NCBI RefSeq assembly: GCF_026151205.1
Contig: NC_087080.1
Location: 4,810,797-4,874,796, forward strand
Length of the DNA stretch: 64,000 bases
From: Bolinopsis microptera
Taxonomy: Eukaryota
Direction: 5' to 3'
Position numbers and translations under genes: made by a program. The notes under the pieces are model-generated. The model saw only the letters and a list, made by a program, of their open reading frames with translations. It was not told where the DNA came from and searched no databases. Position 1 is the first letter of the stretch, and the number at the start of each line of letters is the position of its first letter. Below, piece by piece: positions 36,806 through 59,435 of the stretch.

Positions 36806-36857
36806 ATGAGGGCTCCCAAACTTGTTTTTTTACTTCTTGCGATTTTCTACTCATCAG
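36806..36857 (+). CDS. Exon 1 of the ECM gene: start codon and signal peptide (MRAPKLVFLLLAIFYSS), ends phase 1
   Basis: The upstream ATG is followed by a stop. Hydrophobic leader; donor gtaagt at 36858. Confidence 0.6.
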
Positions 36858-37124
36858 GTAAGTTCCATCCAGATGCTGATAATTGGTGGAAAATGACTGT
36901 ACGAAAAAAATTGAAATCCTGAAAAATCTCTGTGCACAACTGCATCAATATCTTATTCTACTGGTCAATTTCTACTAATGAGCACACAGACTTATGTCAA
37001 GACTGTGAAATTTGTTAAATATTCATATGCCTCTTGATTAAACCATGCAATACTGCCATTAAATTTCTAATTTGAAAACAATACAGACCTACGATTATTT
37101 AAATATAATAATGAATTTTTAAAG

Positions 37125-37253
37125 ACGCGTTCTGTGGGCTGGACAAATTCGAATGTAGTGATGATAAAAGTTGCAAGGGAAGAGAAGTGCAGTGTGATGG
37201 ACATAATGACTGTGAAGATGGTAGTGATGAAGCAGAATGTACACAAATACAGC
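37125..37253 (+). CDS. Exon 2: LDL-receptor class A repeat
   Basis: DAFCGLDKFECSDDKSCKGREVQCDGHNDCEDGSDEAECTQIQ; acceptor ttttaaag, donor gtaagt. Confidence 0.7.
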
Positions 37254-37411
37254 GTAAGTTTTTTTCACGTTTAGCTTTCATGTTACTTTTTCTGTCAAAT
37301 TATTAATTTGGATATCGAACAATTCTTGGAATTTCTTTGAAATTTGCAAGAAAATACAAATGTAAAAACATTCCAAAAATGTTGGTACATTTATATACAT
37401 TTTTTTTACAG

Positions 37412-37552
37412 AATGTGAGGTTGAGAAACTATCGTGTGAAGCTACTGTTAATAATGAGGTGATAAATAAATGTTACGATACAAAAAATGACATTTGCAAA
37501 GCTGGTGGCTTCAATGCTCTGTGTGACAATCACGAGGACGTACAGCACTGTC
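37412..37552 (+). CDS. Exon 3: six-Cys module (LDLa-like)
   Basis: QCEVEKLSCEATVNNEVINKCYDTKNDICKAGGFNALCDNHEDVQHC; stays in phase with exon 2. Confidence 0.6.
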
Positions 37553-37683
37553 GTAAGTTGAAACACATCACATGGATTTATATTTGATGTGATAAGTGGC
37601 ACAACGTATGTCAGCCTGCTAATATTATTCTAAGATTGAATCAATCTTTCTTAAAAATCGTATCTAAGAACTAAACCACTTAG

Positions 37684-37797
37684 GTTGCAACCCTAATGAA
37701 GGACAAGACAAGCCGATACGATGCCCTACAACTGGTAAATGTGTCAAAGGAAACACACTAGCGGATTTTTGTGCTCAATGTCCGGATTCTGTTACAT
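37684..37797 (+). CDS. Exon 4: Cys-rich module
   Basis: RCNPNEGQDKPIRCPTTGKCVKGNTLADFCAQCPDSVT; donor gtaagt. Confidence 0.55.
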
Positions 37798-38116
37798 GTA
37801 AGTAAATCGTAAAAAGACACTGCCATGTCATTGTTAATTGTTTTCGAAAGATTGGGGCATTTATCTGACAGGTTAATTAGACAAATTTCAGCTTTTCACA
37901 AATTACAAAACGTTATGAAAGTTGCCAAAATGTGTGCTAATATAGCTGTTTGACACACAGAAATTTCCAGCGGTCATTAGTTGACTTAAAATGATTAAGA
38001 TGGTTGTCGGTGATAATGATCTTTGGATTCTTAAAATGGCTATTCACATCCATATTCATATATTATTGTTATGATATCATAATGATTGAAACAACTATTT
38101 CCCAATTTATTTCCAG

Positions 38117-38298
38117 GTATGTCGAAGGCTGACGCTGCTATTCAGAAAGATTGTAGTAGATACAAAATAGACGGTTACTTCCAATGTATACCCACTGCAG
38201 AGTTTATAGGTAGTGAATCATTCGATAAAGTATGTCTTCCTGAAGCCGCTCAATGTGACTCATTTATACAGTGCCAAGGCTCCTCGGATACCCCCGCA
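38117..38298 (+). CDS. Exon 5: LDLa-like module
   Basis: CMSKADAAIQKDCSRYKIDGYFQCIPTAEFIGSESFDKVCLPEAAQCDSFIQCQGSSDTPA; donor gtgagt. Confidence 0.6.
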
Positions 38299-38554
38299 GT
38301 GAGTTAGCTACTAGTTTAAGTAACATGGTATATTGTGAATCAGTATTCTTGTGACTATATTTTGCACTTGTTTATTAAAATCATGAATGAGTGAATGGGA
38401 AATAAAAAACCATTATTAAAACGGAAATACTGGTACTGATAATTCTTATGGTTGATAGTTAACCAGGGGTTTAGGAAGAGGGGGGGGGGGCAGGGAGGCA
38501 CCCCTGTAGTTAACTGATAATATCACTTAGTTATGTGTAGAAGCTACAATAAAG

Positions 38555-38641
38555 CTAGAAAGCTCTTCCTCGCCCGCTGGAGTATACATTGGAGACGATG
38601 TTGTCAATGCATATGAAGTAAAGGGGAAACCTGAGCCGACC
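38555..38641 (+). CDS. Exon 6: start of the Ig-like region. The acceptor is uncertain; the alternative start is 38531.
   Basis: ...SSSSPAGVYIGDDVVNAYEVKGKPEPT; donor gtgagt. Confidence 0.45.
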
Positions 38642-39049
38642 GTGAGTATGAGAGTCACAAAAAGTTATACAAGTCATAAAGTATGAATTTCTTTGCTGAA
38701 GAAATGTGTCATTAAATCATTACGATATTTACGATAAGTAACAATAATTGTCAATACATTTCCCGATTTCTTCCATCTGGCAAGTGAAATATTAACACCC
38801 ATTTATTTCAGTTTAAAATTTACCATTACAACAAGGAGATACTTTTAAGCAGTGATAACACATACTCATACGAAGGAACTGAGATTAGCGTTAAGAAAGA
38901 GCAAAAAAGTCTTGAATTATACAAATACGAGGTTACCTTACGGCACAATGATATTGATTTACTCATTTATCGTTGGTAGTTTGCAACAATGTATGACACC
39001 ATTATCATTTGCATGTTGTGAGATAACATTGCAAATTTAATAATTTTCA

Positions 39050-39137
39050 GGTCACTATAAAAAATATCAATGAATATTTCTATGGAACATATGACGCCAT
39101 TGCTTGGAATGTAAACAACGAACCTGTTGACCTCGGA
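39050..39137 (+). CDS. Exon 7: Ig-like
   Basis: VTIKNINEYFYGTYDAIAWNVNNEPVDLG; donor gtaaga. Confidence 0.55.
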
Positions 39138-39322
39138 GGTAAGATGATCCTAAACGATATGAAACTTTAACAGCTGTCGTAAATTTGCGAGGTCAATGAA
39201 ATATCATATGATTTTTTATCGCGCTAATTATACAATACACTTCAATATATTTGAATAGAAACGATTGTTTATAATATCAAGTTGTGTGTAAAAATATGTA
39301 TCGACAACTGCGGTAATTTCAG

Positions 39323-39385
39323 ATGGCAACGACGGGTCTTACCACAGGAGAGTTGTTGCGGAACAAGTAAATGTTAAATTCGAGG
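39323..39385 (+). CDS. Exon 8
   Basis: DGNDGSYHRRVVAEQVNVKFE; donor gtatgt. Confidence 0.5.
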
Positions 39386-39900
39386 GTATGTATGCGTTTT
39401 CATTTTTCTCATTTTTATAAACAAAATAAGAAAGGAATGGTGATACAACTGTGAAGCTCTTTTTCAACAAATAAAACACATATTTACATGCTTCTACAAC
39501 ATTCTTATACATTTTTTAATCAATAAACTTTCAAATTGTTACACAAATACATCATTTTATTTCAAAGAAAATTCGCCGAATGACCTTACATGCCTTGACA
39601 AGTGACCGAGTGTAAACAAAATAAGGGACACCGAAACACCAGTTGACCAGTAAACTGGTCATAGCAATTACATTGGGCCCTATATGCACCTATTAGTGAA
39701 GCGGTACTGCAACCAAGGCATGCTAAGTTTATTCCATTCGACTAATAAGGTTACAGCCTAAAATATAGAAAATAATACGATTAAAAACTGTTTCATAAAG
39801 AAAAAAAATTGACTTGGTTTATCTTTTATTATTTTAGATATACAAGTTTTATATCTAAAACTAATCAAATAAAATGACTAATTAATCCTAATCGAGTCAG

Positions 39901-40036
39901 GTGTACCAACTGTGAAGATGTTCGGACCGGACGACGAAGAGTTGAATGGTGATATTGACTACACCTGGGAAACCGATGTATCTCTCAGTCTGAAATGTGT
40001 TGCTACAGGCAAACCTGAACCTGATATTTATTTCAT
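39901..40036 (+). CDS. Exon 9: Ig I-set N-half
   Basis: GVPTVKMFGPDDEELNGDIDYTWETDVSLSLKCVATGKPEPDIYF; donor gtcagt. Confidence 0.6.
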
Positions 40037-40245: not shown

Positions 40246-40368
40246 GCTGGACGGGGAAAGTTTGTACATTAATGACGACACAATGGAGGTTCAAACGGAA
40301 GAGTACAATGAGGTTGACATGTTAAAAGTGGTTACTCTGGTTTTGAAATCTGGCGATATCGTGAACAC
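40246..40368 (+). CDS. Exon 10: Ig middle
   Basis: MLDGESLYINDDTMEVQTEEYNEVDMLKVVTLVLKSGDIVN; donor gttagt. Confidence 0.55.
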
Positions 40369-40633: not shown

Positions 40634-40707
40634 ACCCGGGAGATACAGTTGTGGTGCAAACAGTGTCATCGGCGAAGTTGTCTCAGTTGGAGGAGTCAAA
40701 GTTGAGC
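40634..40707 (+). CDS. Exon 11: Ig C-half with Y.C.A.N motif
   Basis: TPGRYSCGANSVIGEVVSVGGVKVE; donor gtaagt. Confidence 0.6.
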
Positions 40708-40930: not shown

Positions 40931-41045
40931 TGATAATTCCTCCCGTAATCACGGAGTTCACCGGCATGGAAAACGGGTTCTTCTTCTACAGAAATGATGA
41001 AGAAGTTCAGATCTCATGTATTAGTGAAGGATTCCCACTCATGTG
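40931..41045 (+). CDS. Exon 12: Ig N-half
   Basis: LIIPPVITEFTGMENGFFFYRNDEEVQISCISEGFPLM(W); donor gtatga. The phase matches the analogous exon 9. Confidence 0.55.
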
Positions 41046-41174: not shown

Positions 41175-41256
41175 GAACGATCTGTACGTCGATAACGAGA
41201 AGATAGAAGGCGCAGATGTGGAGGTCAAGAGATTAGACGCGGGTGCTACCTTATCG
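41175..41256 (+). CDS. Exon 13: Ig middle
   Basis: WNDLYVDNEKIEGADVEVKRLDAGATLS; donor gtagga. Confidence 0.5.
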
Positions 41257-41427: not shown

Positions 41428-41539
41428 TACACTTACAAAAGCGACCAAAACGGTAAAATCAAGTGTATCGCTAAGAACAGCCCAGAATCAGCAGACAACA
41501 AAGAAACTGATGAAGAAGAAGTGGACATGTACCCAGTCT
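41428..41539 (+). CDS. Exon 14: Ig C-half
   Basis: YTYKSDQNGKIKCIAKNSPESADNKETDEEEVDMYPV; donor gtgagt. Confidence 0.6.
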
Positions 41540-41934: not shown

Positions 41935-42058
41935 TCCTGCCAACCATCGCGGTGGAACAGGAATCCTTCATTTTAACTGCTGGAGATAATTTCAAGACCA
42001 CAATCAAAGTAGAGTTCACCGCAGATCTTAAGTTGATTGCCGACCAACTAACAGCGGA
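41935..42058 (+). CDS. Exon 15
   Basis: FLPTIAVEQESFILTAGDNFKTTIKVEFTADLKLIADQLTA; donor gtaaga. Confidence 0.5.
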
Positions 42059-42290: not shown

Positions 42291-42368
42291 AGTGGTATAC
42301 GCAGACGGTAGTGCAGTAAGTGAAGCCTGGACACTGGTTAAAAAGGACGACACCGAAGGAAACATTGT
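42291..42368 (+). CDS. Exon 16
   Basis: EVVYADGSAVSEAWTLVKKDDTEGNIV; donor gtaagt. Confidence 0.5.
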
Positions 42369-42647: not shown

Positions 42648-42763
42648 GGAGTTTGACTTATCGGCAGCTGATGTAGTTGGTATCCCTAATATCGGGGATT
42701 TCAAAGTGATGGCTAGTGATACTTTTTACAATGCCGAGACGGGAATAACTATTGATGTTCTAG
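42648..42763 (+). CDS. Exon 17
   Basis: VEFDLSAADVVGIPNIGDFKVMASDTFYNAETGITIDVL; donor gtaaaa. Confidence 0.5.
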
Positions 42764-42990: not shown

Positions 42991-43135
42991 TACCAATGTC
43001 ATTTATCAAACCTATTGGAGATAACTTGAAGTTGAACAAAGGTCAAGAACTGACTTTAGAAGTACAAGTAATCGCTAAGCCTGTTCCTGTGAGCTTTGCT
43101 TGGACACTTAATGAAACTGAGCTTGTGGATGATGC
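42991..43135 (+). CDS. Exon 18: Ig-like N-half
   Basis: VPMSFIKPIGDNLKLNKGQELTLEVQVIAKPVPVSFAWTLNETELVDDA; donor gtaagt. Confidence 0.55.
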
Positions 43136-43567: not shown

Positions 43568-43731
43568 GGCCACTATATTCATTGAGGAATCTTTCGACGC
43601 CACAACCTACATCACAACGTACACTCTGAGACTTGTAGATCTAAAAGAGGAACAAACAGGAACCATCTCTGTTGGAATAACTCGAGGAGACGACGAAACT
43701 CTGTCCGGGTCTATGGAGCTAGAAGTGCTAG
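43568..43731 (+). CDS. Exon 19: Ig-like C-half
   Basis: AATIFIEESFDATTYITTYTLRLVDLKEEQTGTISVGITRGDDETLSGSMELEVL; donor gtaata. Confidence 0.55.
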
Positions 43732-43869: not shown

Positions 43870-44275
43870 CGGTTCAAGTTATTAACTCTTTAAGTTATTA
43901 AGTTATTCAAGTTATTAACTCTTTAAGTTATTAAGTTATTGAATATTGAAGTTATTAACTCTTACAGTTATTAAGTTATTCAAGTTATTAACTCTTCAAT
44001 TTATTAAGTTATTGAATATTGAACTCATTAACTCTTACAGTTATTAAGTTATTGAATATTGAAGTTATTAACTCTTTAAGTTATTAAGTTATTGAATATT
44101 GAAGTTATTAACTCTTACAGTTATTAAGTTATTGAATATTGAAGTTATTAACTCTTTAAGTTATTGAGTTATTGAATATTTAAGTTATTAACTCTTTAAG
44201 TTATTAAGTTATTGAATATTGAAGTTATTAACTCTTACAGTTATTAAGTTATTGAATAAGTAAGTTACTAACAGT
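43870..44275. repeat. Intronic minisatellite (gttattaactcttta/cagttattaagttattgaatattgaa, ~60-bp unit)
   Basis: Direct reading. Confidence 0.85.
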
Positions 44276-44303: not shown

Positions 44304-44436
44304 CGCATCCTTGCCTGTTTTTCCCTTGCAAGAACAACGCAGAATGTCTTGAAGTAAGCAAGACAGAATACGAGTGTGAGTGTACCGACGATTTCTACAA
44401 CGGCACTAACTGTGAAATAAACAATTACTGTGCTCT
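44304..44436 (+). CDS. Exon 20: EGF-like
   Basis: AHPCLFFPCKNNAECLEVSKTEYECECTDDFYNGTNCEINNYCA; donor gtaagt. Confidence 0.65.
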
Positions 44437-44708: not shown

Positions 44709-44823
44709 CCAAGACCCGTGTGAAAATGAGTCCACCTGCGAGTCTGCCGCATGGGATGCTGAGGAGCCAATTTACACATGTCTGTGTCCGTTTGACTACG
44801 AAGGACGAAATTGTTCAGACAAG
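44709..44823 (+). CDS. Exon 21: EGF-like
   Basis: LQDPCENESTCESAAWDAEEPIYTCLCPFDYEGRNCSDK. Confidence 0.6.
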
Positions 44824-45051: not shown

Positions 45052-45219
45052 ATCAACTTCTGTGACAGAGATAAAGAAGGAAATGTGGAACTCGGAGGGA
45101 TCGCTAGGTGTGACGAGGCCTCTGGTTTCGGTAAATGTCAAGACACGGGTGTTGAACCCGATGGTTTCGACTGTTTTTGTAAGCACAATAAAGGCGGCAT
45201 GTACTGCGATATTGAACAG
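45052..45219 (+). CDS. Exon 22: EGF-like
   Basis: INFCDRDKEGNVELGGIARCDEASGFGKCQDTGVEPDGFDCFCKHNKGGMYCDIEQ; donor gtttgt. Confidence 0.6.
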
Positions 45220-46408: not shown

Positions 46409-46522
46409 CTGTGTACTCCCAACTCCTGTGCTAACGATGCAACTTGCACCGTCCAAGGATACGGTGAGGACCGTGTCCGTGTCTGTAACTGTAACGACGG
46501 GTGGGAGGGTCATCTCTGTGAC
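46409..46522 (+). CDS. Exon 23: EGF-like
   Basis: LCTPNSCANDATCTVQGYGEDRVRVCNCNDGWEGHLCD; donor gtaagt. Confidence 0.65.
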
Positions 46523-46775: not shown

Positions 46776-46884
46776 GAGAAAACAACAGGGTACTGCTGGA
46801 CAGATTGTAATGACCGTGCTTACTGTGAGGAAGAGGGGGTGTGTCTGTGTGACTACCCTTACTATGGGGACACGTGCGAACTAC
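46776..46884 (+). CDS. Exon 24: EGF-like
   Basis: EKTTGYCWTDCNDRAYCEEEGVCLCDYPYYGDTCEL; donor gtacgt. Confidence 0.55.
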
Positions 46885-47589
46885 GTACGTTAACTCTATT
46901 TCTAGAACATATACCAGCACAAGCTGCTGGTCCAGCAGCTTTATTGTTCTTTTGGAGTTACATTCTTTGGTGAACATAACCATCATGATTCATTCGTATC
47001 ATATGTTTTACAAAATTCTCGTCCCCCGAGCACCATGATGACATCATATCTCCACTCTCCAGATATAAGCGACGTTGCTGTGAACATGAGAATTGCACCC
47101 CGTGCATATCTGATGGCTGAAACCTATCCCCTAATCGCGGAGGAGCGACTACAGAAACACGTTTTACCTCTTAAGATAGAGCCGTCACCAACCGTGTCGT
47201 GCCGTATCGCTAGGATGAGCGCTGATAAGGATGCCACTGGTGATCATCTTGATTTCGGTATCTCGGTTACAGAGTCCGCTATTTCTGAGACAGAGAGTGT
47301 GACTGTTGTTGCGTTTGAAGTTACTGGTCTGATTGGAGAAGTGGCCGTGTCAGAGACTGTTGACAAGGTTATATCATTAAATTATACCTGTGTTTTAGTT
47401 ACATTTTGATTATGATATTTAAAGTATGATTGATTTTAAAAACTTTTATATTTTGAAACCAGCCTTGAAATGCAATTTCAGGTAACCTTTGAAAGGATTT
47501 ATTACTGGACCAGACCTAATGTGTATTTTTATAATGCTACGCTGATTATCTATTTATTCAATCTATTACCCAACAGGTAATGGTGGCAG

Positions 47590-47732
47590 AAATTGTGGCA
47601 ATATCCCTGATGGCTGTCGCGGATAAATACGTAGTGTTCTCAGTTGAACATGCTGGAGATGGAGGAATTGCAGCTAAAGAGATGGAACTAGCCCTGCCAG
47701 AATTAGCATTCCTGAAACTTGGTGATTTCGAG
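47590..47732 (+). CDS. Exon 25: hydrophobic segment
   Basis: QIVAISLMAVADKYVVFSVEHAGDGGIAAKEMELALPELAFLKLGDFE; acceptor gtggcag, donor gtatat. Confidence 0.45.
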
Positions 47733-48034
47733 GTATATTAGATTACATGGGTTGATGTATCAATGCTCCATTAACACATATGCCCTTCCGTTCCTATTAT
47801 AATCACGGAACACAATTGGTCAGTTTAAACTTTAAATTCACAGATGTGTTCGTAATAATTTATGTTAAACAATAACATAATGCCAGTTTCACATCATGGC
47901 AAAGGTTTCTAAAAGATTGGCAGTCTAATATATCTTTACAGATTAAACATAATATTCACCATACTGATTCCTGTAGGTTCTTTAGAGTTATATGATAAGA
48001 AATAATACACTTTTACAATAACAATGTCCGGTAG

Positions 48035-48173
48035 GAGGGAGTTGGGTGTGGTGTGGTGCTGATCGGACATGTTGAGGCAGGTGATTACGCTGTTAACCCA
48101 GCTGCCGGTTACTCTGAGGGACGATCTGTTGAGCAGCTTGATGCCTGTTATCACAATCCCTGTATGAATGGAG
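48035..48173 (+). CDS. Exon 26: LamG-like end and EGF start
   Basis: EGVGCGVVLIGHVEAGDYAVNPAAGYSEGRSVEQLDACYHNPCMNG; donor gtgggt. Confidence 0.5.
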
Positions 48174-48407
48174 GTGGGTTTATTGTGACGTGCTGATTGT
48201 TGTGTTTTATAATGTCACTGTCCCTGATTGGTTAGTTAGAATTTAGCATTTTGGGCAATGTTAACTGCTTGATCTATTGAAGGCGATAATGAGACTTCTA
48301 TTTTGAGTATTTCAAACAATACGTGGTCTGACGACAAAAACCCCAAACCATCTGGTCCTTGAGAAATTCCAATAGCATGTTTGTTAAAATGGTTAAAAAC
48401 GTCTCAG

Positions 48408-48493
48408 GAGAATGTGTTGGTGATGAAAGTACTGGGGCCCAGTCTTGTGACTGTTCTGGCACTGGCTTCACTGGAGCTCTCTGCGAGATTCCA
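48408..48493 (+). CDS. Exon 27: EGF-like
   Basis: GECVGDESTGAQSCDCSGTGFTGALCEIP; donor gtaagt. Confidence 0.6.
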
Positions 48494-48771
48494 GTAAGTT
48501 TCCTAATACCGAGGAATTCTTTTAGAGGTTTTGTTTCATCTATGTAATAAGGCTGAGCACAGTATGGAAGGTCATACAATTCTCGATAAATATTTTCATC
48601 CTAGTTTAAACGGAGTTTAAATCAAAGTTTTGGTAAATTAATTTATATTATGACACCAGCGCAGCCGTCAAAAGACAATCCTTAGCGAGTTTTTTGAGAA
48701 TCTAACATATAACCAATTTTAATTAACTCATTATCCAATTATTTAATTATCTAATTATCTTTACTAATCAG

Positions 48772-48853
48772 GATGACGAATCATGCGATAAGGGCTGTCT
48801 GAACGGTGGCGTCTGTCAATCTGATTTCTGTGTCTGTGCTTTGTCATTCCACG
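48772..48853 (+). CDS. Exon 28: EGF-like
   Basis: DDESCDKGCLNGGVCQSDFCVCALSFH; donor gtacgg. Confidence 0.6.
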
Positions 48854-49156
48854 GTACGGTTGGCTCGCATTCTTACTAAAGTTCAAGCAGTTATATAAAT
48901 TGTCATTTCTATTAGTTAAGATGACAGTTGTGTTTTTAATAAACGTTTGAAGTTAATATAGAGTACTATCAATTGTCATTTAATAGAATTAAGGATTACG
49001 GTTGTGTGTTGTGACTCCGTTAATCACTTCGCTGCTAGGCTAAACTTCAGGTCTTTATCTTATGGTGCCCTTCTCTGTTCACAAGCCAAAACTAGAAGGC
49101 AGGGCATCAAAATGAGCAGATCACCCACAATCCCTGACATTACACTGTAACTTCAG

Positions 49157-49256
49157 GAGTGTTATGTGAAGCTAGTCACGAGGTTACTGGAACCATGAAA
49201 CTGTCCGGTGGTGCTAGCGAGGTTTCTTTCAGTCACTCTAATATCACCGCTGTCGA
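49157..49256 (+). CDS. Exon 29
   Basis: GVLCEASHEVTGTMKLSGGASEVSFSHSNITAV; donor gtaagt. Confidence 0.55.
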
Positions 49257-49402
49257 GTAAGTTTTGGTTTAAAACAGCCTTGATAGTTTTTGATGGAATC
49301 AGTTTTTACGTTATCAAACGATTCATCACTTTTGGGCATCCGATTATTTGTGTGGTTCCCATGAAAATATATCGTTTGATTAATATAAAATTAAACCACC
49401 AG

Positions 49403-49487
49403 AATCCAAGCGACGGGGCTGGCTGACGCTACAGTTGCTAGTGATGTTTACCTGATAACTATCGGAGATCAGGACAACTGTGTCAAG
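49403..49487 (+). CDS. Exon 30
   Basis: EIQATGLADATVASDVYLITIGDQDNCVK; donor gtaaaa. Confidence 0.5.
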
Positions 49488-49907
49488 GTAAAATATCTGT
49501 GCCAAGAGGGAGTATTTGGTAACCGCCACCCTTTATTTGGACGTTTATCTACAATGTGGTCAATGTGCCTGCTAAATCGGGGGCTAAACCATATTTTTAA
49601 CGCTTTTATCTGTTCTTTTAAACTGAGTTCTATTGTAGCATCCTGTATCAACTTTCCAATATTTGAGAAGGGTGAAGAAAAATCAAATGCTCTGAACCTC
49701 TCAATGGAAAACACTCAACCAAAATAAATTATCCCTCCGACCTTATCTCACCTTTAATTTAACTGAGTGGATTTTGGGTCTGTGCTTACTGCTTAGTCGC
49801 TGAGTTTAAGTTTTACAGTCGGGTGAGATTCAATTAGGTTAAGTGAGGTTTAATGAGGTTAAATGAGGTTAAATATAGTGTGTTCTCACCTCAACTGACC
49901 CCACTAG

Positions 49908-50045
49908 ATCCTGGTGTCAGACACAACAGAACTGTATATGATAGTGGAGCGTGGAAAGGAGAGCGGTGCCTACGAGGGACTGGGTTCTCTTGCTGATTAC
50001 CTTGTTGAGGGTACCCTTCAAATGTCCATTTCTCTTGGAGAGGAT
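49908..50045 (+). CDS. Exon 31: LamG-like
   Basis: ILVSDTTELYMIVERGKESGAYEGLGSLADYLVEGTLQMSISLGED; donor gtgagt. Confidence 0.55.
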
Positions 50046-50221
50046 GTGAGTTTTTATGAGCTGTTTTTCTGTTTCATTTCTATTTTCGGAGAGAGATAAC
50101 TTTTCTTACACTATAATTTTTTTAAACGTGCTAACACGTTAATGGTCACAGTTCTTAATTTTCAAGACGTCTTACTTTTAAATAATGCTTCGTGAAAACT
50201 AAAACCGTTCTCAAATTCCAG

Positions 50222-50294
50222 ATTCAGATAACCAATGCCGCTAGAGATCCTGTAGTTTACACTGCAGATGAGCTACCTTGTGCTGACGGTCTAG
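50222..50294 (+). CDS. Exon 32
   Basis: IQITNAARDPVVYTADELPCADGL; donor gttcgt. Confidence 0.5.
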
Positions 50295-50456
50295 GTTCGT
50301 TCTCGATTGGTTACTTAGTTACTGAATACTGACTGTGTTACCAAGTTACCTCGGTCACTAGGCAACACAGTTACCAACCTAATTACTACCTGTCCCTAAT
50401 TGTATCACTGATTATATTATTAAATTACTTCCAACCACTCTGACCCCCTTCATTAG

Positions 50457-50579
50457 GAACTACCGACGGTCTGGCAATTCACGGTCTGGAAGGTATCACC
50501 TCTGACGTCACTGCCACTATCAACGGGGAGGCTGCCACGGCAACCGGTGGCAAGGGGGTCGTCAACTCGGCTGTTTCGA
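50457..50579 (+). CDS. Exon 33
   Basis: GTTDGLAIHGLEGITSDVTATINGEAATATGGKGVVNSAVS; donor gtaagg. Confidence 0.5.
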
Positions 50580-51282
50580 GTAAGGATAGCATCATGCAAT
50601 TAGATCGTATCATGTATTGTGTATAATAATGTATAATAATGTATACTTTGCAAGTAATATGGAAGCGTATTAAGAGTATGTTAATGATTTGATAAGCAGC
50701 TAATCAGTAGGGTGTCTGAACTATCGTGTAAATTGGAGAGAGAGAGAGAGCAAAGGGCCAGCCTTCTTTTGTTACATACCACAGTAAAAATGTTTTACTG
50801 TGTGGTTACATACATACAAGGTATTATACGGCCGAGCATTATGGTTCTTGTTAGAGATGTTAGAAACATGGGAACGATTTATCCTTTTAAGGTCTTACAA
50901 TTGCCACCTTAAGAATAACAAATAACTCTATTTTGTGAATCACCATAATGTAAATTTTATCTTCTCCCCTTAAAATCACTCTGCTAATCCCTCAAAACAT
51001 ATAATAAGGTAAGTTATAGAACTCCTGACCAAACGAGTGCCGAAGGCACGAGTTTTGTCAGGAGTTCTATAAATTGCTTATGGTACGGCACAAGACTACA
51101 GTCTTGGGAACATTTTCCGACCAAAATTTTGAAATTTGGTGCATTTTAACAGTGTCAAATTGGCAAAAACTGTATCTACTTCCGACACAAAGTGTTCATT
51201 GTCCAATGAGCATCCTGCCATGCTGCTACCATCGTGTTACTCTCGTGGTTGCCACATGACAGCTTACCTAACTGCTATTGGA

Positions 51283-52200
51283 CAGCGCACTTTTGTCACG
51301 TGAGTTACATTTATTGAGTACAGTACGGAATAAATGTAAGTGGTAAGTATCGGTGTCAAAGAAGACGCTTGCATTCTAAAAGGAGTAAGATATTATGTTA
51401 CAAAGAATGAAATAGTTTGGCATGCAAATTGATATTTTAATACTTCACAGTGAAATGAACTTCCGCTCTCGCGGGAAAAGACAGCTCTGTTCCTACATTT
51501 TTATCATTGTCTTCAATTTTATGTGGCACCTTTCCGATAGACATATTGTTGCTGTCAAATCTCATACTTATTTCGACGTGTCCTATCTGGTTAGGCAAAG
51601 TAATCAGAGTGTTTGTATCTATTGAAACCGTTTCCGTCCATCTTGATTGTACTTGTTCTACTTCAAAGTCGTCAAAGTCTGTAACTAGTTGGGAGCCTTC
51701 AGATGTTTTTAGCCAAATAAGTGCTTCGGCGAGTTCTTTATTCAATTTAGATTTCTTTGCTTCTTTTGGGGACACTTTGCCACCATATTGTTTATCATTG
51801 AAGGAACACCACAGTCCAGCGGGGCATACCTATGCCCCAAACGGGCGTGCTCCTCTCTCCATGTGTTGTACAAATTGACCGCGAATTGAGTCGATTTTCG
51901 TGTGTTTTCTGGTATTCGGCCTTTCCTGAGAGCTTCAAGTTCATCTTTTTCTATCAAAATAATACGAGACGTCATTATGTAAACAAAACAGTGCGATTTA
52001 ATTTCAAATTTTTGGTCCATTTCCTGTTACAATTTATGAAAGTAGTTCCTTCCGATCTACTCCACTAATTTAAAACGTTTGAGATGATAATTCATTTTTC
52101 AAGTGGCCGCACTTTTGTCACGTGAGTTACATTTATTGAGTACAGTACGGAATAAATGTAAGTGGTGAGTATCGATGTCAAAGAAGGTGCTTGCGTTTGA
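51283..52200 (-). other. Intronic ~0.9-kb segment bounded by ~93-bp direct repeats and carrying a short ORF with a tyrosine-recombinase core-binding-like motif
   Basis: Direct repeats 51287-51380 and 52108-52200 (gcacttttgtcacgtgagttacatttattgagtacagtacggaataaatgtaagtgg...). ORFs 51742-52020(-) and 51437-51775(-) include RIPENTRKSTQFAVNLYNTW. Confidence 0.4.
51742..52020 (-). CDS. ORF with SAM-like/core-binding-like motif (P.NT.K.T.FA..L...W); possible Crypton/DIRS-type tyrosine recombinase N-terminal fragment or a domesticated derivative
   Basis: MDQKFEIKSHCFVYIMTSRIILIEKDELEALRKGRIPENTRKSTQFAVNLYNTWREEHARLG... It is followed out of frame by ORF 51437-51775. Confidence 0.3.
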   Translation of the reverse strand: MDQKFEIKSHCFVYIMTSRIILIEKDELEALRKGRIPENTRKSTQFAVNLYNTWREEHARLGHRYAPLDCGVPSMINNMVAKCPQKKQRNLN

Positions 52201-52567
52201 AATGATATTTCATATTTCAAGCAAATTGTGAGCTGTGAATCTAATTTTGCTTAAGCATGAAATCCAGCCCTTCTCGCTGGCTAATATTGGTCACGTTATC
52301 TATCAGCTGACTATACCTCGTGACTGCGTCACTCGGTGACCACGTGCCCGACTGGCTGGTGCCGTACCATAAGGTTAAAAAGCTCATTTGAAGTATTGGT
52401 TCTTAAATCCAGGATCTTAGGTAAATCGGTATTATCCACTGCTTTAATTTACCATTAATTCAGGAGTCAACTCAACCTCTGTAACCTACATTTGATTTTT
52501 TTAAAGACGTTTCTATAACTTATTTTAGCAGTAGACTAAAATATAATTGTCTGATAAACACATTTCA

Positions 52568-52718
52568 GACTTGTGTGACGGAGCCTGTGGTGCGGGAACG
52601 TGTGAGCAGGCGAACAACCAGATAAAATGTAGTGGATGTGTAGAGGGTACCAACCTGGTCACATGCTCTGATGTAGTTTGTGATGTGGAGTTGTGCGAGG
52701 GAGAATGCACTGATATTG
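52568..52718 (+). CDS. Exon 34: EGF-like
   Basis: NLCDGACGAGTCEQANNQIKCSGCVEGTNLVTCSDVVCDVELCEGECTDI; donor gtgagc. Confidence 0.55.
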
Positions 52719-53552
52719 GGTGAGCTTTCTGGTTTTGGATTTTGAAACTGCTTTTGATTAACGAGTTACGAGACTAGCGTTTTGTGATACAAGCAACAAA
52801 TATTGTAGACAGTTTTTGGGTTTTCCAAATAGTTTCTGATTATTCTGATTTGCGACAAATGATATTGCACTGTTAGGATAAACGACGTTTCAAAGTAACA
52901 ACTTCTTATTCATGCTGACAAAATTGGTAAATATGTGAGAAAACTGTCTCATAAAATTTATTAATCAAAAATGGCTAAACGACAACAAATTGTTCAAATA
53001 CTCGACTAAAATTAGGATCAAAATCTATATATATACACCACTACTCGATCTGCTATTCAATAAACTTAAAACATCCACTAAACAGCAAGTACGTGATTGT
53101 GATCGTGTGATGGAATGACATGTACAGTGATAACAGATGATAAGATGTAAGTGATAACAGATGATAAGGTAAAAGATACAATACATGTGAGATGGTGTAT
53201 ACACAATGTGAGTGAAATTATAGTGAGTGGTTACTGATTGTGAGCGAGATGTGAAAAAACATTAAAAATTACTACTGCTAGAAAACTGAAACTGTATGCA
53301 ATAAAAAGGGAATGAAACTAAAATATCTAAAATTCTTCAGTACTAGCTATGATAAAACGTTTAATAGTATCCAGTTCTTCTCTCTTGTTAATATAATAAA
53401 TATTGTGTTCACTCTCAAACACATAAATTTTAATGTGCATGATTTTAAATCCGTATAGTATTCTTGTGACTTAAATTGGCTGTCAAGCATCTGCACAACA
53501 TGAAACTATTACCTAGAGAATACCAAGTTCTGATTTAATTACAAAAGTCACG

Positions 53553-53625
53553 CGACCCCGGAGGGATTCGAACCCCCAATCTTCTGATTCGAAGTCAGAC
53601 GCCTTAGCCATTAGGCCACGAGGCC
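53553..53625 (-). tRNA. tRNA-Arg (anticodon TCG)
   Basis: The reverse complement GGCCTCGTGGCCTAATGGCTAAGGCGTCTGACTTCGAATCAGAAGATTGGGGGTTCGAATCCCTCCGGGGTCG folds as a cloverleaf. The anticodon loop is CTTCGAA and the T-loop is TTCGAAT. A TTTT terminator follows on the minus strand. It lies in an intron of the ECM gene, 36 bp upstream of the exon 35 acceptor. Confidence 0.85.
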
Positions 53626-53660: not shown

Positions 53661-53707
53661 GGAGTGCGTATGCGAATTGGGACAGGAAGGAGTGAATTGT
53701 GAAACAG
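53661..53707 (+). CDS. Exon 35: EGF end
   Basis: GECVCELGQEGVNCET; donor gttaaa. Confidence 0.5.
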
Positions 53708-53858: not shown

Positions 53859-53941
53859 CCGTTACACTTGGACCTCTATCTCTTCCTGTAACTACTTCTT
53901 CATACTACTCGTATGCTGAATATGAAACCGAAGCTTTCGAA
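53859..53941 (+). CDS. Exon 36: LamG start
   Basis: AVTLGPLSLPVTTSSYYSYAEYETEAFE; donor gtgagt. Confidence 0.5.
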
Positions 53942-54290: not shown

Positions 54291-54396
54291 GGCGATGCTG
54301 CTCAACTAGAGTTCTTTGCTCATTTGGATGGATCTGAGCAAATGGGACTGTTAGCAATGGCCGGAAACGAACGCCAATACATTGCTGTAAAACTTG
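54291..54396 (+). CDS. Exon 37: LamG
   Basis: GDAAQLEFFAHLDGSEQMGLLAMAGNERQYIAVKL; donor gtgagt. Confidence 0.55.
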
Positions 54397-54545: not shown

Positions 54546-54700
54546 CTAAAGACGTGATGACGGTTGTGGCGCACTGTTCTGACCTTGTGCACGTGGAAGC
54601 AAGTGTTAGCGGAGTTGGGTATGGTGAGTGGTTGGAGATTTCTGTGACGTGGGCTGATAACTTCCTCACCCTCGCTGTTAATGGGGATAACGACGTACAG
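54546..54700 (+). CDS. Exon 38: LamG
   Basis: AKDVMTVVAHCSDLVHVEASVSGVGYGEWLEISVTWADNFLTLAVNGDNDVQ; donor gttagc. Confidence 0.55.
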
Positions 54701-54859: not shown

Positions 54860-54968
54860 GAAGAAGCTGGATTATGTATATTTGACATGGGTACAACTAT
54901 ATATCTTGGAGGTATGCCAGATGGCAGCGTGCCAAGTGTAAAAGCCACATTTGCTCCAGCAACCAATA
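54860..54968 (+). CDS. Exon 39: LamG
   Basis: EEAGLCIFDMGTTIYLGGMPDGSVPSVKATFAPATN; donor gtaagt. Confidence 0.55.
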
Positions 54969-55046: not shown

Positions 55047-55322
55047 TGTTTACACCCTTGGAAGCTCTATCTGCTGAATTAGAACAAGATCTTCTGAAAA
55101 TTTTATCTTCAGGGAAAGAAGATTTTGGTGTAAAATTAATCCAGATTTTGAAGGCTAATAATGTTACAACCACTGTTACTTTAACGCCGTCTTCACGCCA
55201 ATATCTTAACACAGTTAAACCCCCAGTGATGCCCCTTAACTCTAGACTTGCGGGTGGACAGAGTCTTGCAGTCTCTGAGATCCACATTTGTGACACACAA
55301 TTCGACCCATGCAGTGTCTTAG
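55047..55322 (+). CDS. Exon 40: LamG C-terminal part
   Basis: MFTPLEALSAELEQDLLKILSSGKEDFGVKLIQILKANNVTTTVTLTPSSRQYLNTVKPPVMPLNSRLAGGQSLAVSEIHICDTQFDPCSVL; donor gttagt. Confidence 0.5.
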
Positions 55323-55569
55323 GTTAGTTATACTCAAAGTATTGCTTTTCTCCTCGATACTGTTTTATAATTGCAACCATTTATTCGATTCTGTGAGTAT
55401 GGTTACTATAACTTGGTCAACTGCTTTCTTTATAATTAACTATTACTAATTAACTATAATTAACAACTGCTTTCTTTATAATCAATTGTTAATATCTTAA
55501 AGCTCCAGATTGTTAAGCAGACAAGAAATAGATTTTTAAGTTTATGCAGTCTCAATTATTGTCAACCAG

Positions 55570-55670
55570 GAACGGACACGTGTGAAAAGGATGATGAAGG
55601 ATACAGCTGTATGTGCAAGGACGGATTCAAAGGAGTACATTGCGAAGCGCCCAAAACGCCCTGTGACACA
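55570..55670 (+). CDS. Exon 41: EGF-like
   Basis: GTDTCEKDDEGYSCMCKDGFKGVHCEAPKTPCDT; donor gttagt. Confidence 0.6.
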
Positions 55671-55774
55671 GTTAGTACAAACTCTGCTGTAATTTCTCAT
55701 CTGACAGAGAATTCTCTCACCAACCAATCCATAAACCCCTTTCGATTTGGCCTCACTAAATCTGTCTCCCCCAG

Positions 55775-55944
55775 ACAGTGTGCCAAGATAACGAGGTATG
55801 TGTTGAAGCTGACGGTTCCTGTCTTTGTGAGTTCCCCTCCACTCGATCAGCAGATGAAGTGTGTCAAGGTGAACTGGGTAGTTCCACTGGTTTTATTATG
55901 GAGGGAGCTATGAGTTATGGTCACATCGACACTGATAAGGCTGA
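55775..55944 (+). CDS. Exon 42: EGF-like
   Basis: TVCQDNEVCVEADGSCLCEFPSTRSADEVCQGELGSSTGFIMEGAMSYGHIDTDKA; donor gtaagt. Confidence 0.55.
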
Positions 55945-56224
55945 GTAAGTGACGGGTGGTTTTTTGATGATTTATCTTGCTCTGCTGGAATCTTTGTCCG
56001 TATTTCGTCAATTTCTTTCGTCTTTTAAATATTTTCCCATTGTATAAAAAAAAAATCGTGTCTCGTGATGTAACACCGATTTTGTTCGATAAAATTGGTC
56101 ACACAATGAAAATTAAGCAAATCGTTAAACACGTAAACCGTCAAAACATATTATCATTATATTTACCACAAACAAAATTCCAATGATAAACATAAAATGC
56201 CTCCTCACAAACTCGTTCTCACAG

Positions 56225-56374
56225 AGTCGCCAACAACTTTGACCTGGTGTTCCGGTTCTACCTATCAGACTCAGCAACAGTAAACGCCACCTACGACCTT
56301 GCTACTCTATTATACCCGGGCGAAGACGGAACTGAGTCGCAAATTGGTTTACATCTTGTTGTTGGGGAGGAAGA
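56225..56374 (+). CDS. Exon 43
   Basis: EVANNFDLVFRFYLSDSATVNATYDLATLLYPGEDGTESQIGLHLVVGEE; donor gtaaga. Confidence 0.5.
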
Positions 56375-56536
56375 GTAAGAAACAATATTTTTACTTACCT
56401 CATTTGATGCGTTAGGTTTATTAATACTTCTTTGTTTTGATATTTTAAATTAGACTGCGACTAATCGTTTTGTTTCATCAGAGAAGTACGTAATTATTTA
56501 GATATTGCCGATATTAACCACACATTCTTTATAAAG

Positions 56537-56614
56537 GCAAGTAAATGAAGCCAATGAACCTATAACCGTGACGATCTATGTGTTGGTTATACCGTTCGAC
56601 GAGAGTGTGTCCCT
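56537..56614 (+). CDS. Exon 44
   Basis: EQVNEANEPITVTIYVLVIPFDESVS; donor gtaagt. Confidence 0.5.
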
Positions 56615-56674
56615 GTAAGTACATACCTTTCTAAAAGTATATTGTGCTATATATTTTAATTTGTGATCTTTCAG

Positions 56675-57565
56675 AGTTATTTTGCCAGTTGACGATGAGG
56701 ATGCTGCTGAGGAAACAGATGGAGATGCTGAAGAGGAAACAGATGGGGATGCTGAAGAGGAAACAGATGGGGATGCCGAAGAGGTAACAGATGGTGATGC
56801 CGAAGAGGAAACAGATGGGGATGCCGAAGAGGAAACAGATGGGGATGCTGAAGAGGAAACAGATGGGGATGCTGAAGAGGAGAAAGATGAGGATGCTGAA
56901 GAGGAAACAGATGGGGATGCTGAAGAGGAAACAGATGGGGATGCTGAAGAGGAAACAGATGGTGATGCCGAAGATGAAACAGATGGTGATGCCGAAAAGG
57001 AAACAGATGATGATGCTGCAGAGAAAACAGATGTGGATGCTGAAGAGGATCCAGCTGTGGAGAATACAGATGGAGAAGACAACGGCATAACAAAAAGAGA
57101 TGCCGAAGAGCCCGCTGGTCCGCCAGCTGGGAATGTCGAAGAGGAAACAAATGGCGATGCCGAATTGGAAACAGATGATAATGCCGAAGTGGAAACAAAT
57201 GAAGATGCCGAAGAGGTAATAGATGGGGATGCCGAAGAGGAAACAGGCGGGAATACCGAAGAAGAAACAGATGAGGATGGCGAAGAGGAAACAAATGGAG
57301 ATGCCGAAGAGGAAACAGATAGAGATGCCGAAGAGGAAACTGAGGGGGATGCCGAAGAGGAAACAGGCGGGGATACCGAAGAAGAAACAGATGAGGATGC
57401 TGAAGAGGAAACAGATGGAGATGCCGAAGAGGAAACAGATGGAGATTCCGAAGAGGAAACTGAGGGGGATACCGAAGAAGAAACAGATGAGGATGCCGAA
57501 GAGGAAACAGTCACCCGTAAAACATTCCAGATTTCTTCTCAATTTCTTGAAGAGGTGGTTTTACT
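56675..57565 (+). CDS. Exon 45: long acidic tandem-repeat exon (TDGDAEEE x about 35; 24-nt period)
   Basis: ORF 56682-57569 reads VILPVDDEDAAEETDGDAEEETDGDAEEE... It stays in phase with the flanking exons, with acceptor ctttcag and donor gtaagt. The long S-rich minus-strand ORFs here are antisense artefacts of the repeat. Confidence 0.6.
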
Positions 57566-57855
57566 GTAAGTTAGCACAATATCATCGAGCCATGAAGGTC
57601 GTTTCTTCAAACTTCAAACTTTAGCATCGGGATCATCTTGGTTTTGCTTCCATGTAAATTGTAACGAATGCATGATACTTGGAAACCTTTTTTGCATTAT
57701 TTGTCATGAAAATTTCCTTTATTCGTATTTAATTTCTAAAGATTTTTAGCACTAGTTTTAGCATGTGATAGATACCTTCAGTATTAATTTCAATAGAAAG
57801 AACAAGCCCTGTTCTAGTTCCAAGAGGGCGAATAGTTTGCCTTTGAATGGTATTA

Positions 57856-58020
57856 GGGGTCGTTCACATATTACGTAATCAGCTGAGGGGGGGGGGGGGT
57901 TTCCGAATGATTACGCTAGTGTAATTTTGACACAATAGCTATGTGTAAAACTGATTACGGAGGGGGGGGGGGGTGGTAAAAATGTTCCAAAAAATGATTA
58001 CGTAATATGTGAACGACCCC
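57856..58020. mobile_element. Tourist-like hairpin MITE (26-bp perfect TIRs, TTA target duplication, internal poly-G tracts)
   Basis: GGGGTCGTTCACATATTACGTAATCA ... TGATTACGTAATATGTGAACGACCCC, flanked by tta|...|tta. Confidence 0.65.
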
Positions 58021-58427
58021 TTAACAGACGGAACATTGTTTTTGTGCGCCAAACACTGCACGTGACATATGAGAAATGGGGGAGTCGCATTGTGTAACCA
58101 TTTGCGACAAGCTTTATCAGGGTGCCTGTTTCTTGTTCGAAAATTGAAGATTTTTTAATGACTGACGATCTTTCCTTCCTAGCATTTATTCATGCGTTAT
58201 ATTCTTCAGCAGCATTTACATAGGAAATCCGATAGCATATTTTAAAGTTTTTCCTCCTTTCAGCACATTTTAAGATTACATATCTCTCAAAATATTTACG
58301 TCTTTTGTCGAATTATCATTCCAGGAATGTTTTTCTTCATTTTAAAGCAAAGCACAGTTTACACTGCTAATTAGTGAAACTATTTGAGTATACTAGTTTT
58401 CCAGACTAACACTTTTGTCATTTGCAG

Positions 58428-58463
58428 GGAGCCCAATCAGTGGCACGTCATCAGAATTCAAAC
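58428..58463 (+). CDS. Exon 46
   Basis: LEPNQWHVIRIQ; acceptor tttgcag, donor gtaggt. Confidence 0.45.
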
Positions 58464-58785
58464 GTAGGTTCTTTTTGATAGAATTCCACACATATTTGTA
58501 CTCAAATTCCCAAACTCAACAGTATGATTGCACTATTTCAACATTAAAACCGAGTAATTTCGTAAGAAAACACAGATCAGCTTCACATTCAATTGTAATA
58601 AGATAATAAAACCTCACAAGCCACCTGCTGGTCTGACGCTTCACAACTACCAGTAAATCACGAGTCATCACGTTTTTCACTCCCCAGCAATAGCGACACA
58701 AGCCACCCCACCAGCAGGGGATCATTGATCACTGTTCACTGTTTTAAATGTTGAATAACAAGGGAATAACGGGAGGTACGCCCAG

Positions 58786-58874
58786 GTCTGGATTGGGAAC
58801 AACTCTTGAGGTTAACGATAAGGTTTACTCAACAACGGAGCTCGGTATCCCTCTTGTCAATGCTATTCATCTAG
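58786..58874 (+). CDS. Exon 47: LamG
   Basis: TSGLGTTLEVNDKVYSTTELGIPLVNAIHL; donor gtaacg. Confidence 0.45.
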
Positions 58875-59109
58875 GTAACGTTCATTAGTTGCAGTTGAAA
58901 TAGTTACAGAATTTTCGGGAATTCATACTAAAGATCATTCTTGTTCCTAAAGTTCTTGATCGTTCTTGTTCCTAAAATTGCAGCATTCCAAAAATTTGGT
59001 AAACCTTACAAGCATTCTTAAATCGATCGCATCTAGTATTCTCCTTCATAAAATAGAAAAATTATAATTTCAAATTTGGACACGAGTCTTGGAACACCCT
59101 GTACTTTAG

Positions 59110-59196
59110 GTGTGGCTGGTAACCAAGCTTACATGAGCTGTATCGGAGACATCACACTCAACGGACAACCAATCACGGAGTTAGACGACGGTCTAG
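59110..59196 (+). CDS. Exon 48: LamG C-terminal motif
   Basis: GVAGNQAYMSCIGDITLNGQPITELDDGL; donor gtttgt. Confidence 0.55.
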
Positions 59197-59349
59197 GTTT
59201 GTTAGAATGACAGTTGATGTTTGGTGATTTTAGCTATAATATAAAACTAGCAGCACCTTGGTGTAACTCAAACTGATGACCGTAAAGACTACCGAAAATA
59301 AAATTTATGTTTTAAGGACTCTGAAAAATTTACAACTTCCCCATCTCAG

Positions 59350-59435
59350 GTGTCAAATCCTGTTCTGACGAAGTCAACACTGAGTACGAGAACAGGCTGG
59401 GAGTTGAGGTTTGGGCTAAGCTTGGCCTCTTGTAA
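59350..59435 (+). CDS. Exon 49: putative terminal exon with stop TAA at 59433-59435. A gtaaga donor overlapping the stop means continuation cannot be excluded.
   Basis: GVKSCSDEVNTEYENRLGVEVWAKLGLL*. Confidence 0.4.

Follow-up and report, generated by a model that had tools for sequence, protein, structure and literature searches.

The stretch of Bolinopsis microptera DNA analysed here (contig NC_087080.1, positions 4,810,797 to 4,874,796; the whole 64,000-nt stretch is called the window below) is AT-rich eukaryotic DNA that carries the gene LOC134821320 on its plus strand. Bolinopsis is a lobate ctenophore. Blind de novo exon chaining, which drew on open frames, GT/AG scores and codon usage trained on the sequence itself, yielded a plus-strand gene with its ATG at 36806 and a stop codon ending at 59435, exactly the ends that an earlier, sequence-only reading of this DNA had given. 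A search with the draft model returned a single protein, XP_063688119.1 ("uncharacterized protein LOC134821320 isoform X2", Bolinopsis microptera, 1912 aa), whose spliced mapping to the window is 100% identical over 50 coding exons; the introns are all GT...AG and the phases consistent, as had been claimed. The sequence-only reading had counted 49 exons and about 1.6 kb of coding sequence. The mapping gives 50 constitutive coding exons and one alternative exon, and the coding sequence (CDS) measures 5,739 nt, so the earlier length was off by a factor of 3.6. Exons have a median length of 113 nt and introns a median of 234 nt. No paralogue of the gene was found elsewhere in the window. The gene model is already present in RefSeq as "uncharacterized"; what is new here is the domain map, the RNA and cross-species support, and a conserved polyacidic exon.

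LOC134821320 is a genuine, expressed ctenophore gene. The 90% cluster of XP_063688119.1 includes a JGI protein, the metatranscriptome contig of which (L001; 6,973 nt, sample 3300009608) aligns to the window in 50 blocks with the same exon boundaries at 94-100% identity, all 49 junctions being in agreement. Spliced RNA had been proposed as the check on these junctions, and this contig, from an independent environmental sample, passes all 49 introns. Its open reading frame (ORF) is complete and uninterrupted over 1912 codons and starts from the same ATG (36806), which is the first ATG of a long ORF 3' of the spliced-leader acceptor described below. The final block of the contig runs from 59348 to 60614, placing a 3' untranslated region (UTR) of at least 1.18 kb at 59436-60614.

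L001 opens with CTACTATATAACAAATAATTTGAG, a sequence of 22-24 nt that is encoded nowhere in the window. It is closely similar to the trans-spliced leader reported in Hormiphora, ...CACTACTTTAAACAAATTAATTTGAG, which has the conserved end AATTTGAG (PMC8527503). Colinearity between the contig and the genome starts at an AG at 36784-36785, and the trans-splice acceptor and the short 5' UTR that follows it (36786-36805, 20 nt) together occupy 36784-36805; this UTR holds a three-codon upstream ORF, ATG AAG TAA, at 36790-36798. Because the 5' end of the contig is absent from the window, resembles a spliced leader, and gives way to genomic sequence at an AG, the mRNA of LOC134821320 looks to be spliced-leader trans-spliced ~20 nt 5' of the start codon.

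Domain map of the encoded protein

The encoded protein is ~205 kDa, acidic (pI ~4.1) and heavily disulfide-bonded, with 102 Cys residues. From the N terminus it consists of a signal-like peptide, an LDLa module, three further Cys modules, five immunoglobulin (Ig)-sized units, five EGF modules, a module termed A, two EGF modules, a module termed B, two EGF-like modules, a laminin-G (LamG) domain, two EGF modules and a second LamG domain followed by the stop codon. The families that the sequence-only reading had expected from a Pfam scan, namely LDLa, Ig_3/I-set, EGF and Laminin_G, were recovered above their curated cut-offs in the predicted N-to-C order. It had also reported no laminin-B or SEA domain, and in agreement with this no Laminin_B, SEA, Kazal or NtA match was found in the Pfam scans (whole protein at E<=0.1, parts at E<=1).

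Exon 1 (36806-36857) holds the start codon and a peptide, MRAPKLVFLLLAIFYSS, that is signal-like as judged by inspection, with a hydrophobicity peak at aa 5-24. Exon 2 (37125-37253, phase 1-1) encodes a canonical LDLa module at aa 21-56, matched by PF00057 with 35.3 bits when scanned alone and 26.3 bits in the whole protein (cut-off 24.1). This module has the six-Cys pattern with the acidic cluster motif CDGHNDCEDGSDEAEC, which places it in the LDLa family, and its PDB sequence matches are repeats of VLDLR, LRP2 and LDLR. Three more six-Cys modules, recognized by their Cys pattern, follow at aa 61-206, one in each of exons 3-5 (37412-37552, 37684-37797 and 38117-38298). These modules 2-4 matched no Pfam family at E<=1, so that of the four LDLa-type modules claimed earlier only the first stands; by eye, the C-terminal half of module 4 is LDLa-like (C-x6-C-D-x4-C-x-G-S-S-D-x4-C). 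Modules 1-3 each occupy a single phase 1-1 exon, and exon 5 is entered in phase 1 and left in phase 0.

Exons 6-20 (38531-38641, 38812-38931, 39051-39138, 39323-39385, 39901-40036, 40246-40368, 40634-40707, 40931-41045, 41175-41256, 41428-41539, 41935-42058, 42291-42368, 42648-42763, 42991-43135 and 43568-43731) encode the five Ig-sized units at aa ~207-757. In the whole protein, Pfam Ig_3 scored 54 bits (cut-off 30; best stretch aa 668-734) and I-set 40.2 bits (cut-off 23.7; best stretch aa 658-740), and the PDB matches of this region are Ig domains of DSCAM, Robo and RPTP-delta. When the units were scanned individually, weak Ig_3/I-set matches were obtained in units 1, 2, 3 and 5, and no Pfam Ig match in unit 4 (aa 548-654); a reference profile made from five Ig sequences lacked the power to place units 1 and 4. 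Units 2-5 each cover two or three exons and open with a phase 1 exon (exons 10, 13, 16 and 19), and unit 1 (exons 6-9) opens in phase 0 and covers four. The earlier description of about five Ig domains of two to three exons with recurring phase therefore holds for the number of units and for the phase of the last four, but Ig signal was obtained in four of the five and the first unit departs from the exon pattern.

The five EGF-like modules that follow (aa 757-970) are encoded one per exon by exons 21-25 (44304-44436, 44709-44823, 45052-45219, 46409-46522 and 46776-46884). The first (aa 757-801) was matched by Pfam EGF at 24.4 bits, EGF_2, EGF_TEN and EGF_laminin were sub-threshold in the other four, and PDB matches of the run are EGF repeats of DLL1 and Notch. 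EGF modules 6 and 7 (aa ~1161-1230; 48035-49256) occupy parts of exons 28-31, including exons 29 and 30 (48408-48493 and 48772-48853), and were detected by Pfam EGF at 25.4 bits in two stretches and by PDB matches to Notch and neurexin EGF. Exons 36 and 37 (52569-52719 and 53661-53707) encode modules 8 and 9 (aa 1399-1465), an atypical 14-Cys EGF-like pair read from the Cys pattern, for which no Pfam family rose above threshold. The last pair, modules 10 and 11 (aa ~1640-1713; 55227-55944, parts of exons 42-44), scored 22.3 bits with Pfam EGF and 20 bits with EGF_2. In total, Pfam EGF lies above its cut-off in aa 757-801, 1160-1230 and 1640-1715, and ~11 EGF-like modules are discernible by Cys pattern.

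The first LamG domain, LG-C (aa ~1465-1640), is encoded by exons 38-42 (53859-53941, 54291-54396, 54546-54700, 54860-54968 and 55227-55322) and was matched by Pfam Laminin_G_2 at 37.6 bits (cut-off 22.9; aa 1509-1601) and by Laminin_G_1 at 24.1 bits (cut-off 24; aa 1509-1603). The second, LG-D (aa ~1714-1912 with the stop codon; 55775-59435), is encoded by exons 44-50, exon 43 lying at 55570-55670 within the EGF pair; its exons are 55775-55944, 56225-56374, 56537-56614, 58428-58463, 58786-58874, 59110-59196 and 59350-59435. LG-D had no Pfam match. Both domains were compared with a profile built from 66 LamG domains of 22 search hits, with 40 column shuffles per module as controls. LG-C (aa 1465-1641) matched at an hhalign probability of 95.9% (E 6e-9) with a global score at z=28 relative to the shuffles, and LG-D at 93.4% (E 2.6e-7, 148 columns) with z=18, while Ig modules included as controls stayed at noise (z about 0). 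LG-C and LG-D are therefore both assigned to the LamG families (PF02210/PF00054), with matches over most of each domain. PDB sequence searches returned EGF, LDLa and Ig matches only, and no LamG. The C terminus, ...VEVWAKLGLL*, directly follows LG-D in the protein and in the ORF of L001. The sequence-only reading had proposed an alternation of EGF and LamG modules in the order LamG-EGF-EGF-LamG; this order was verified for the terminal LG-C-EGF2-LG-D, but two of the four Cys-poor modules between EGF modules, A and B, scored at noise level.

Module A (aa 970-1160) is encoded at 47063-48173 by exons 26-28 (47063-47367, 47577-47732 and 48035-48173), the end of exon 28 opening EGF module 6, and module B (aa ~1231-1399) at 49157-50579 by exons 31-35 (49157-49256, 49403-49487, 49908-50045, 50222-50294 and 50457-50579). 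Both are Cys-poor and conserved (module A strongly so), measure ~170-190 aa, and lie at sites where further LamG domains had been assumed. Neither had a Pfam match at E<=1 or a match in profile searches against PDB sequences, and against the 66-domain LamG profile modules A (aa 970-1162) and B (aa 1229-1400) scored at the level of the shuffles (z=1.1 and z=1.0). A scan of JGI metagenomes with the module A alignment found no relatives, though L001 itself is from JGI. With aa 970-1912 as a lone sequence, AlphaFold2 reached a mean pLDDT of 35.6, which is uninformative because even the Pfam-positive LamG domain came out unfolded; a run on module A-EGF2-module B with an eight-row alignment of ctenophore fragments gave 35.9. 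A generic LamG alignment was deliberately kept out of the AlphaFold runs on these modules, as the result would mirror the alignment. As they match no Pfam family, PDB sequence profile or LamG profile, modules A and B may be unrecognised extracellular domains.

The only strongly hydrophobic stretch besides the signal-like peptide lies in module A (aa ~1068-1092). With EGF modules on either side of module A, a membrane span at this site is not credible. The earlier description of the protein as secreted agrees with this, with the signal-like N terminus and with an end directly after the last LamG domain.

Conservation among ctenophores and the alternative exon of LG-D

A search of 1.84 billion representative proteins with aa 757-1912 as the query recovered short ORF fragments of 57-91% identity, which are exon pieces from other ctenophore assemblies; fragments covering module A are 57-89% identical. 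One such fragment led to a 47-kb ENA contig, 20 kb of which (L002) carries exons 11-50 in the same order with 87% amino acid identity over those exons. Selection was measured by codon-level dN/dS, as exon-versus-intron identity from long BLAST pieces proved uninformative. The comparison with L002 gave a dS of 0.23, a dN of 0.067 and a dN/dS of 0.285 over 1,491 codons. By region, dN/dS is 0.53 in the Ig region, 0.18 in LG-C, 0.14 in module A and 0.22 in module B, the two modules being among the parts of the gene with the lowest values. More distant ctenophore fragments and transcripts are 41-66% identical, and two Logan RNA contigs, L004 (ERR6349701) and L005 (ERR3586692), encode the C terminus at 41% identity and stop after the same ...LGLL. 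As judged from these comparisons, LOC134821320 is under purifying selection and conserved among ctenophores.

Exon 46 (56537-56614, 78 nt, phase 2-2), used in isoform X2 and in L001, encodes a strand of LG-D just before a conserved W-H. This exon is fast-evolving, with 52% amino acid identity and a dN/dS of ~1.6 over 25 codons in the comparison with L002. RefSeq isoform X1 (XP_063688118.1, 2183 aa) has in its place an exon of 891 nt at 56675-57565 (phase 2-2), and the CDS reconstructed with this exon gives an identical protein. The alternative exon repeats a 24-nt unit in tandem, which is translated as (TDGDAEEE)n; 156 of its 297 aa are D or E. Both exons are multiples of three, so that inclusion of either, both or neither preserves the frame. 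In the LamG alignment, the splice choice falls immediately ahead of the LG-D strand that has the conserved W-H.

The polyacidic exon is not present in L001, the single mRNA contig at hand. In L002 its acceptor (ttcag|AG) and donor (ACT|gtaagt) are kept, together with an uninterrupted acidic frame and the peptides that flank the repeat (VILP.DDEDA... and ...RKTF.ISSQFLEEVVLL); the repeat unit differs, and the other frames contain stops. The exon is probably real, as the Gnomon model and this conservation together suggest. In L004 and L005, positions 1-470 hold an (MVNGT)n repeat exactly where Bolinopsis has the polyacidic exon, before the same strand. A fast-evolving repeat insert at this loop of LG-D may be a conserved feature. 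Switching between exon 46 and the polyacidic exon (297 aa) would reshape one edge of LG-D or add a polyanionic arm to it.

Relationship to perlecan, agrin, eyes shut and crumbs

Outside the ctenophores, only the EGF and LamG modules of aa 757-1912 find matches among the representative proteins. The top hits are EGF-rich (a fibrillin-like protein, Notch), and of the LamG-bearing hits whose names were checked, most are eyes-shut or crumbs-like proteins, joined by two EGF-LamG proteins of the sponge Oscarella. The best-scoring named LamG-containing hit is a Nematostella "eyes shut homolog" (E 4.7e-20); fish eyes-shut is also found, and the crumbs-like hits are from Saccoglossus, Diadema, Panulirus and Ornithodoros. 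A partial perlecan of Bulinus, with the layout Ig3-LG-EGF2-LG-EGF2-LG, ranks 121st (E 4.9e-10) in an EGF-driven match. Pairwise LamG scores are all weak: LG-C scores 22 bits with a crumbs-like LamG, 18 bits with a sponge LamG and 3 bits with perlecan, and LG-D scores 11 bits with an Oscarella LamG, perlecan LG1 being third best at 8.6 bits. At aa 1520-1522 LG-C reads R-Q-Y, at a motif where D-F is found in all three perlecan and all three eyes-shut LGs aligned; in place of G-D-F it resembles the crumbs-like LGs (S-Q-Y, N-E-Y).

Most likely, the protein is a lineage-specific mosaic of the extracellular matrix or of cell adhesion, built from the set of phase-1 modules that metazoans share, and is not an orthologue of perlecan or agrin. 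We would put the probability of this explanation as a whole, a genuine expressed gene under purifying selection that encodes such a mosaic, at roughly 0.6. Other LamG/EGF proteins suggest, by analogy, that the two LamG domains at the C terminus would bind a partner on the cell surface or in the matrix, with the EGF pairs and Ig units serving as an elongated spacer and the LDLa module as a Ca-dependent site for basic ligands; these roles, and a location in the matrix, are predictions from the known behaviour of the modules.

Several points weigh against this picture. Modules A and B, ~20% of the protein and among its most constrained parts, had no Pfam, PDB or LamG profile match and could alter it. 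The LamG domains are 15-20% identical to any reference, a level at which orthology is not decidable either way, and as the large-library search covered aa 757-1912, a distant orthologue with the same N-terminal layout is possible. The acidic exon stands on a Gnomon model and conservation, and function and location are drawn by analogy with LamG/EGF proteins. The Asp of the D-F/Y motif coordinates calcium in LNS/LG structures. As LG-C lacks this residue, a tentative reading in so divergent a domain, Ca-dependent glycan binding of the perlecan/agrin kind may not apply.

An alternative, which we regard as unlikely, places LOC134821320 in the eyes-shut/crumbs group of EGF-LamG proteins, with N-terminal LDLa and Ig modules gained by exon shuffling in the ctenophore lineage. 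The best LamG-containing hits come from this group and from Oscarella, and like eyes shut (EYS/spacemaker) the protein is secreted and has a run of EGF modules ahead of LamG domains interleaved with EGF. With crumbs it shares the EGF/LamG alternation, the replaced motif of LG-C and the best pairwise match of that domain. The ranking of the hits, however, is set by the number of EGF repeats and not by LamG similarity, EGF repeats also carrying most of the resemblance to EYS, and no pairwise LamG score exceeds 22 bits. EYS consists of EGF modules and typically five LamG domains only, a pattern that the C-terminal half of LOC134821320 fits, whereas two LamG domains are demonstrable here alongside LDLa, Cys modules and Ig units; LDLa and Ig modules occur in neither family. 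Crumbs, a membrane protein of type I, spans the membrane once and ends in a short conserved tail on the cytoplasmic side, and in LOC134821320 the transmembrane segment and tail are absent, no C-terminal hydrophobic stretch being found.

Perlecan is recognised by its LDLa, Ig, laminin-B, laminin-G and EGF homologies and by the order of its domains II-V (PMC4398486), and it is improbable that LOC134821320 is a ctenophore orthologue or early form of it, in which domains II, IV and V are joined and region III has been lost or not yet inserted. The resemblance to perlecan (HSPG2/UNC-52/Trol) is one of layout. Both are secreted, both place LDLa before Ig and C-terminal LamG domains separated by EGF pairs in the same N-to-C order, and both genes are modular with phase-1 module boundaries. 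The terminal LG-EGF-EGF-LG, verified here, is the repeat of perlecan domain V (LG-EGF-EGF-LG-EGF-EGF-LG), also seen in the Bulinus fragment; modules A and B are placed exactly where further LamG domains would be, although module B is at noise level against the LamG profile and AlphaFold gave pLDDT 36; and perlecan LG1 is the third-best match of LG-D.

Most of the remaining features of perlecan diverge. Of domain III (laminin-B set in laminin-type EGF), PF00052 was not found and EGF_laminin appeared only at E 0.017-0.15, below cut-off, and SEA is lacking. Domain II, with three to four LDLa modules followed by Ig, may have a partial counterpart in the one LDLa above cut-off and the three Cys modules without a Pfam match, the last of them LDLa-like in its C-terminal half by eye, with Ig directly after them; in place of the long Ig array of domain IV there are five Ig-sized units, four with weak signal. 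Five EGF modules stand between the Ig and LamG regions, as they do not in perlecan, and beyond the two demonstrable LamG domains there are the two conserved modules A and B. The weak pairwise scores show no affinity of the LamG domains to perlecan over other LamG families, LG-C being closer to crumbs-like and sponge LamG and without the Asp kept by the perlecan LGs, and the Bulinus perlecan ranks behind eyes-shut and crumbs-like proteins. In surveys based on tBLASTn, collagen IV and laminin were the only basement-membrane components that ctenophores yielded, and no perlecan-like gene was among the finds (PMC4398486, PMC5395295). With the laminin-B region and the long Ig array absent, and with one LDLa and two LamG domains demonstrated, the layout is perlecan-like but perlecan membership does not follow, and the protein would be a variant among LamG/EGF mosaic matrix proteins.

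Agrin is similar as a secreted matrix protein with a C terminus of alternating EGF and LamG. Alternatively spliced inserts in agrin LamG domains (the y/z sites) alter binding, and the alternative exon within LG-D is analogous to these. The follistatin-like/Kazal domains, the NtA or transmembrane N terminus and the SEA domain of agrin were all absent from the Pfam scans, as were its laminin-EGF modules above threshold; agrin in turn lacks LDLa and Ig, and its spacing is EGF-LG-EGF-EGF-LG-EGF-LG, as opposed to EGF pairs throughout in LOC134821320. The perlecan/agrin module grammar proposed in the sequence-only reading thus survives as a resemblance in N-to-C order, while the laminin-B/laminin-EGF region, long Ig array, Kazal/follistatin, NtA and SEA are missing, and its decision to leave the family assignment open was the right one.

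That the gene is an annotation artefact, with neighbouring genes fused or intronic ORFs strung together, is very improbable: the model is an automated (Gnomon) one of an "uncharacterized protein" and X1 includes a tandem-repeat exon of a sort that predictors sometimes include wrongly, but L001 covers the spliced leader, 50 exons, the stop and 1.2 kb of 3' UTR with the ORF uninterrupted, exon order and boundaries are kept in a second species (L002), and dN/dS is 0.29. For isoform X2, the 50-block alignment of L001 rules an artefact out.

The ctenophore basement-membrane toolkit has been credited with collagen IV and laminin only (PMC5395295, PMC4398486), and a conserved, expressed, secreted protein in perlecan order is a concrete candidate for a matrix-to-cell linker in these animals. 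It could be used to test if linkers of this kind are ancestral or arose independently through exon shuffling. If the protein is merely a lineage-specific mosaic, as we think most likely, it represents ordinary modular evolution of matrix proteins. A more far-reaching proposal, to which we attach a low probability, is that an LDLa-Ig-EGF-LamG matrix linker was already present in the last common animal ancestor, the laminin-B region having been inserted later or lost in ctenophores. This would contradict the published surveys, which deny ctenophores a perlecan-like gene. On the same reading, modules A and B would be previously unrecognised, highly constrained extracellular domains, and the encoded polyacidic exon would play the polyanion role of the glycosaminoglycan chains of perlecan.

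Other features of the window

Several of the introns contain further elements. A tRNA-Arg(TCG) gene lies on the minus strand in intron 36 (53552-53625; Rfam 69 bits, also called by ARAGORN), 35 nt upstream of exon 37, and L002 (11781-11960) matches the surrounding 180 nt at 90% identity. In intron 35, ~1.4 kb at 51003-52429 has no counterpart in L002, where the flanks abut; it was probably inserted in this lineage, and makes intron 35 the longest of the gene. Two minus-strand ORFs within it (112 and 92 aa) had no Pfam match. Intron 20 contains an AT-rich 40-nt tandem repeat at 43890-44272 (9.7 copies, 86% identity).

Upstream of the gene, 31811-35211 is occupied by ~3.2 kb of degenerate pyrimidine-rich satellite (TCC/CCTCCTCAGTCCT units) followed by 20/40-nt repeats. 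This region reaches 60% GC with a strong C + T skew and lies ~1.6 kb upstream of the gene start; a 219-aa ORF in it is low-complexity and probably non-coding. ORFs with domains of reverse transcriptase (PF00078; 128 and 55 bits) and of AP-endonuclease mark remnants of non-LTR retrotransposons at 391-5893 and 12411-13529, and the ORF on the minus strand at 3690-4124 matches GIY-YIG weakly.

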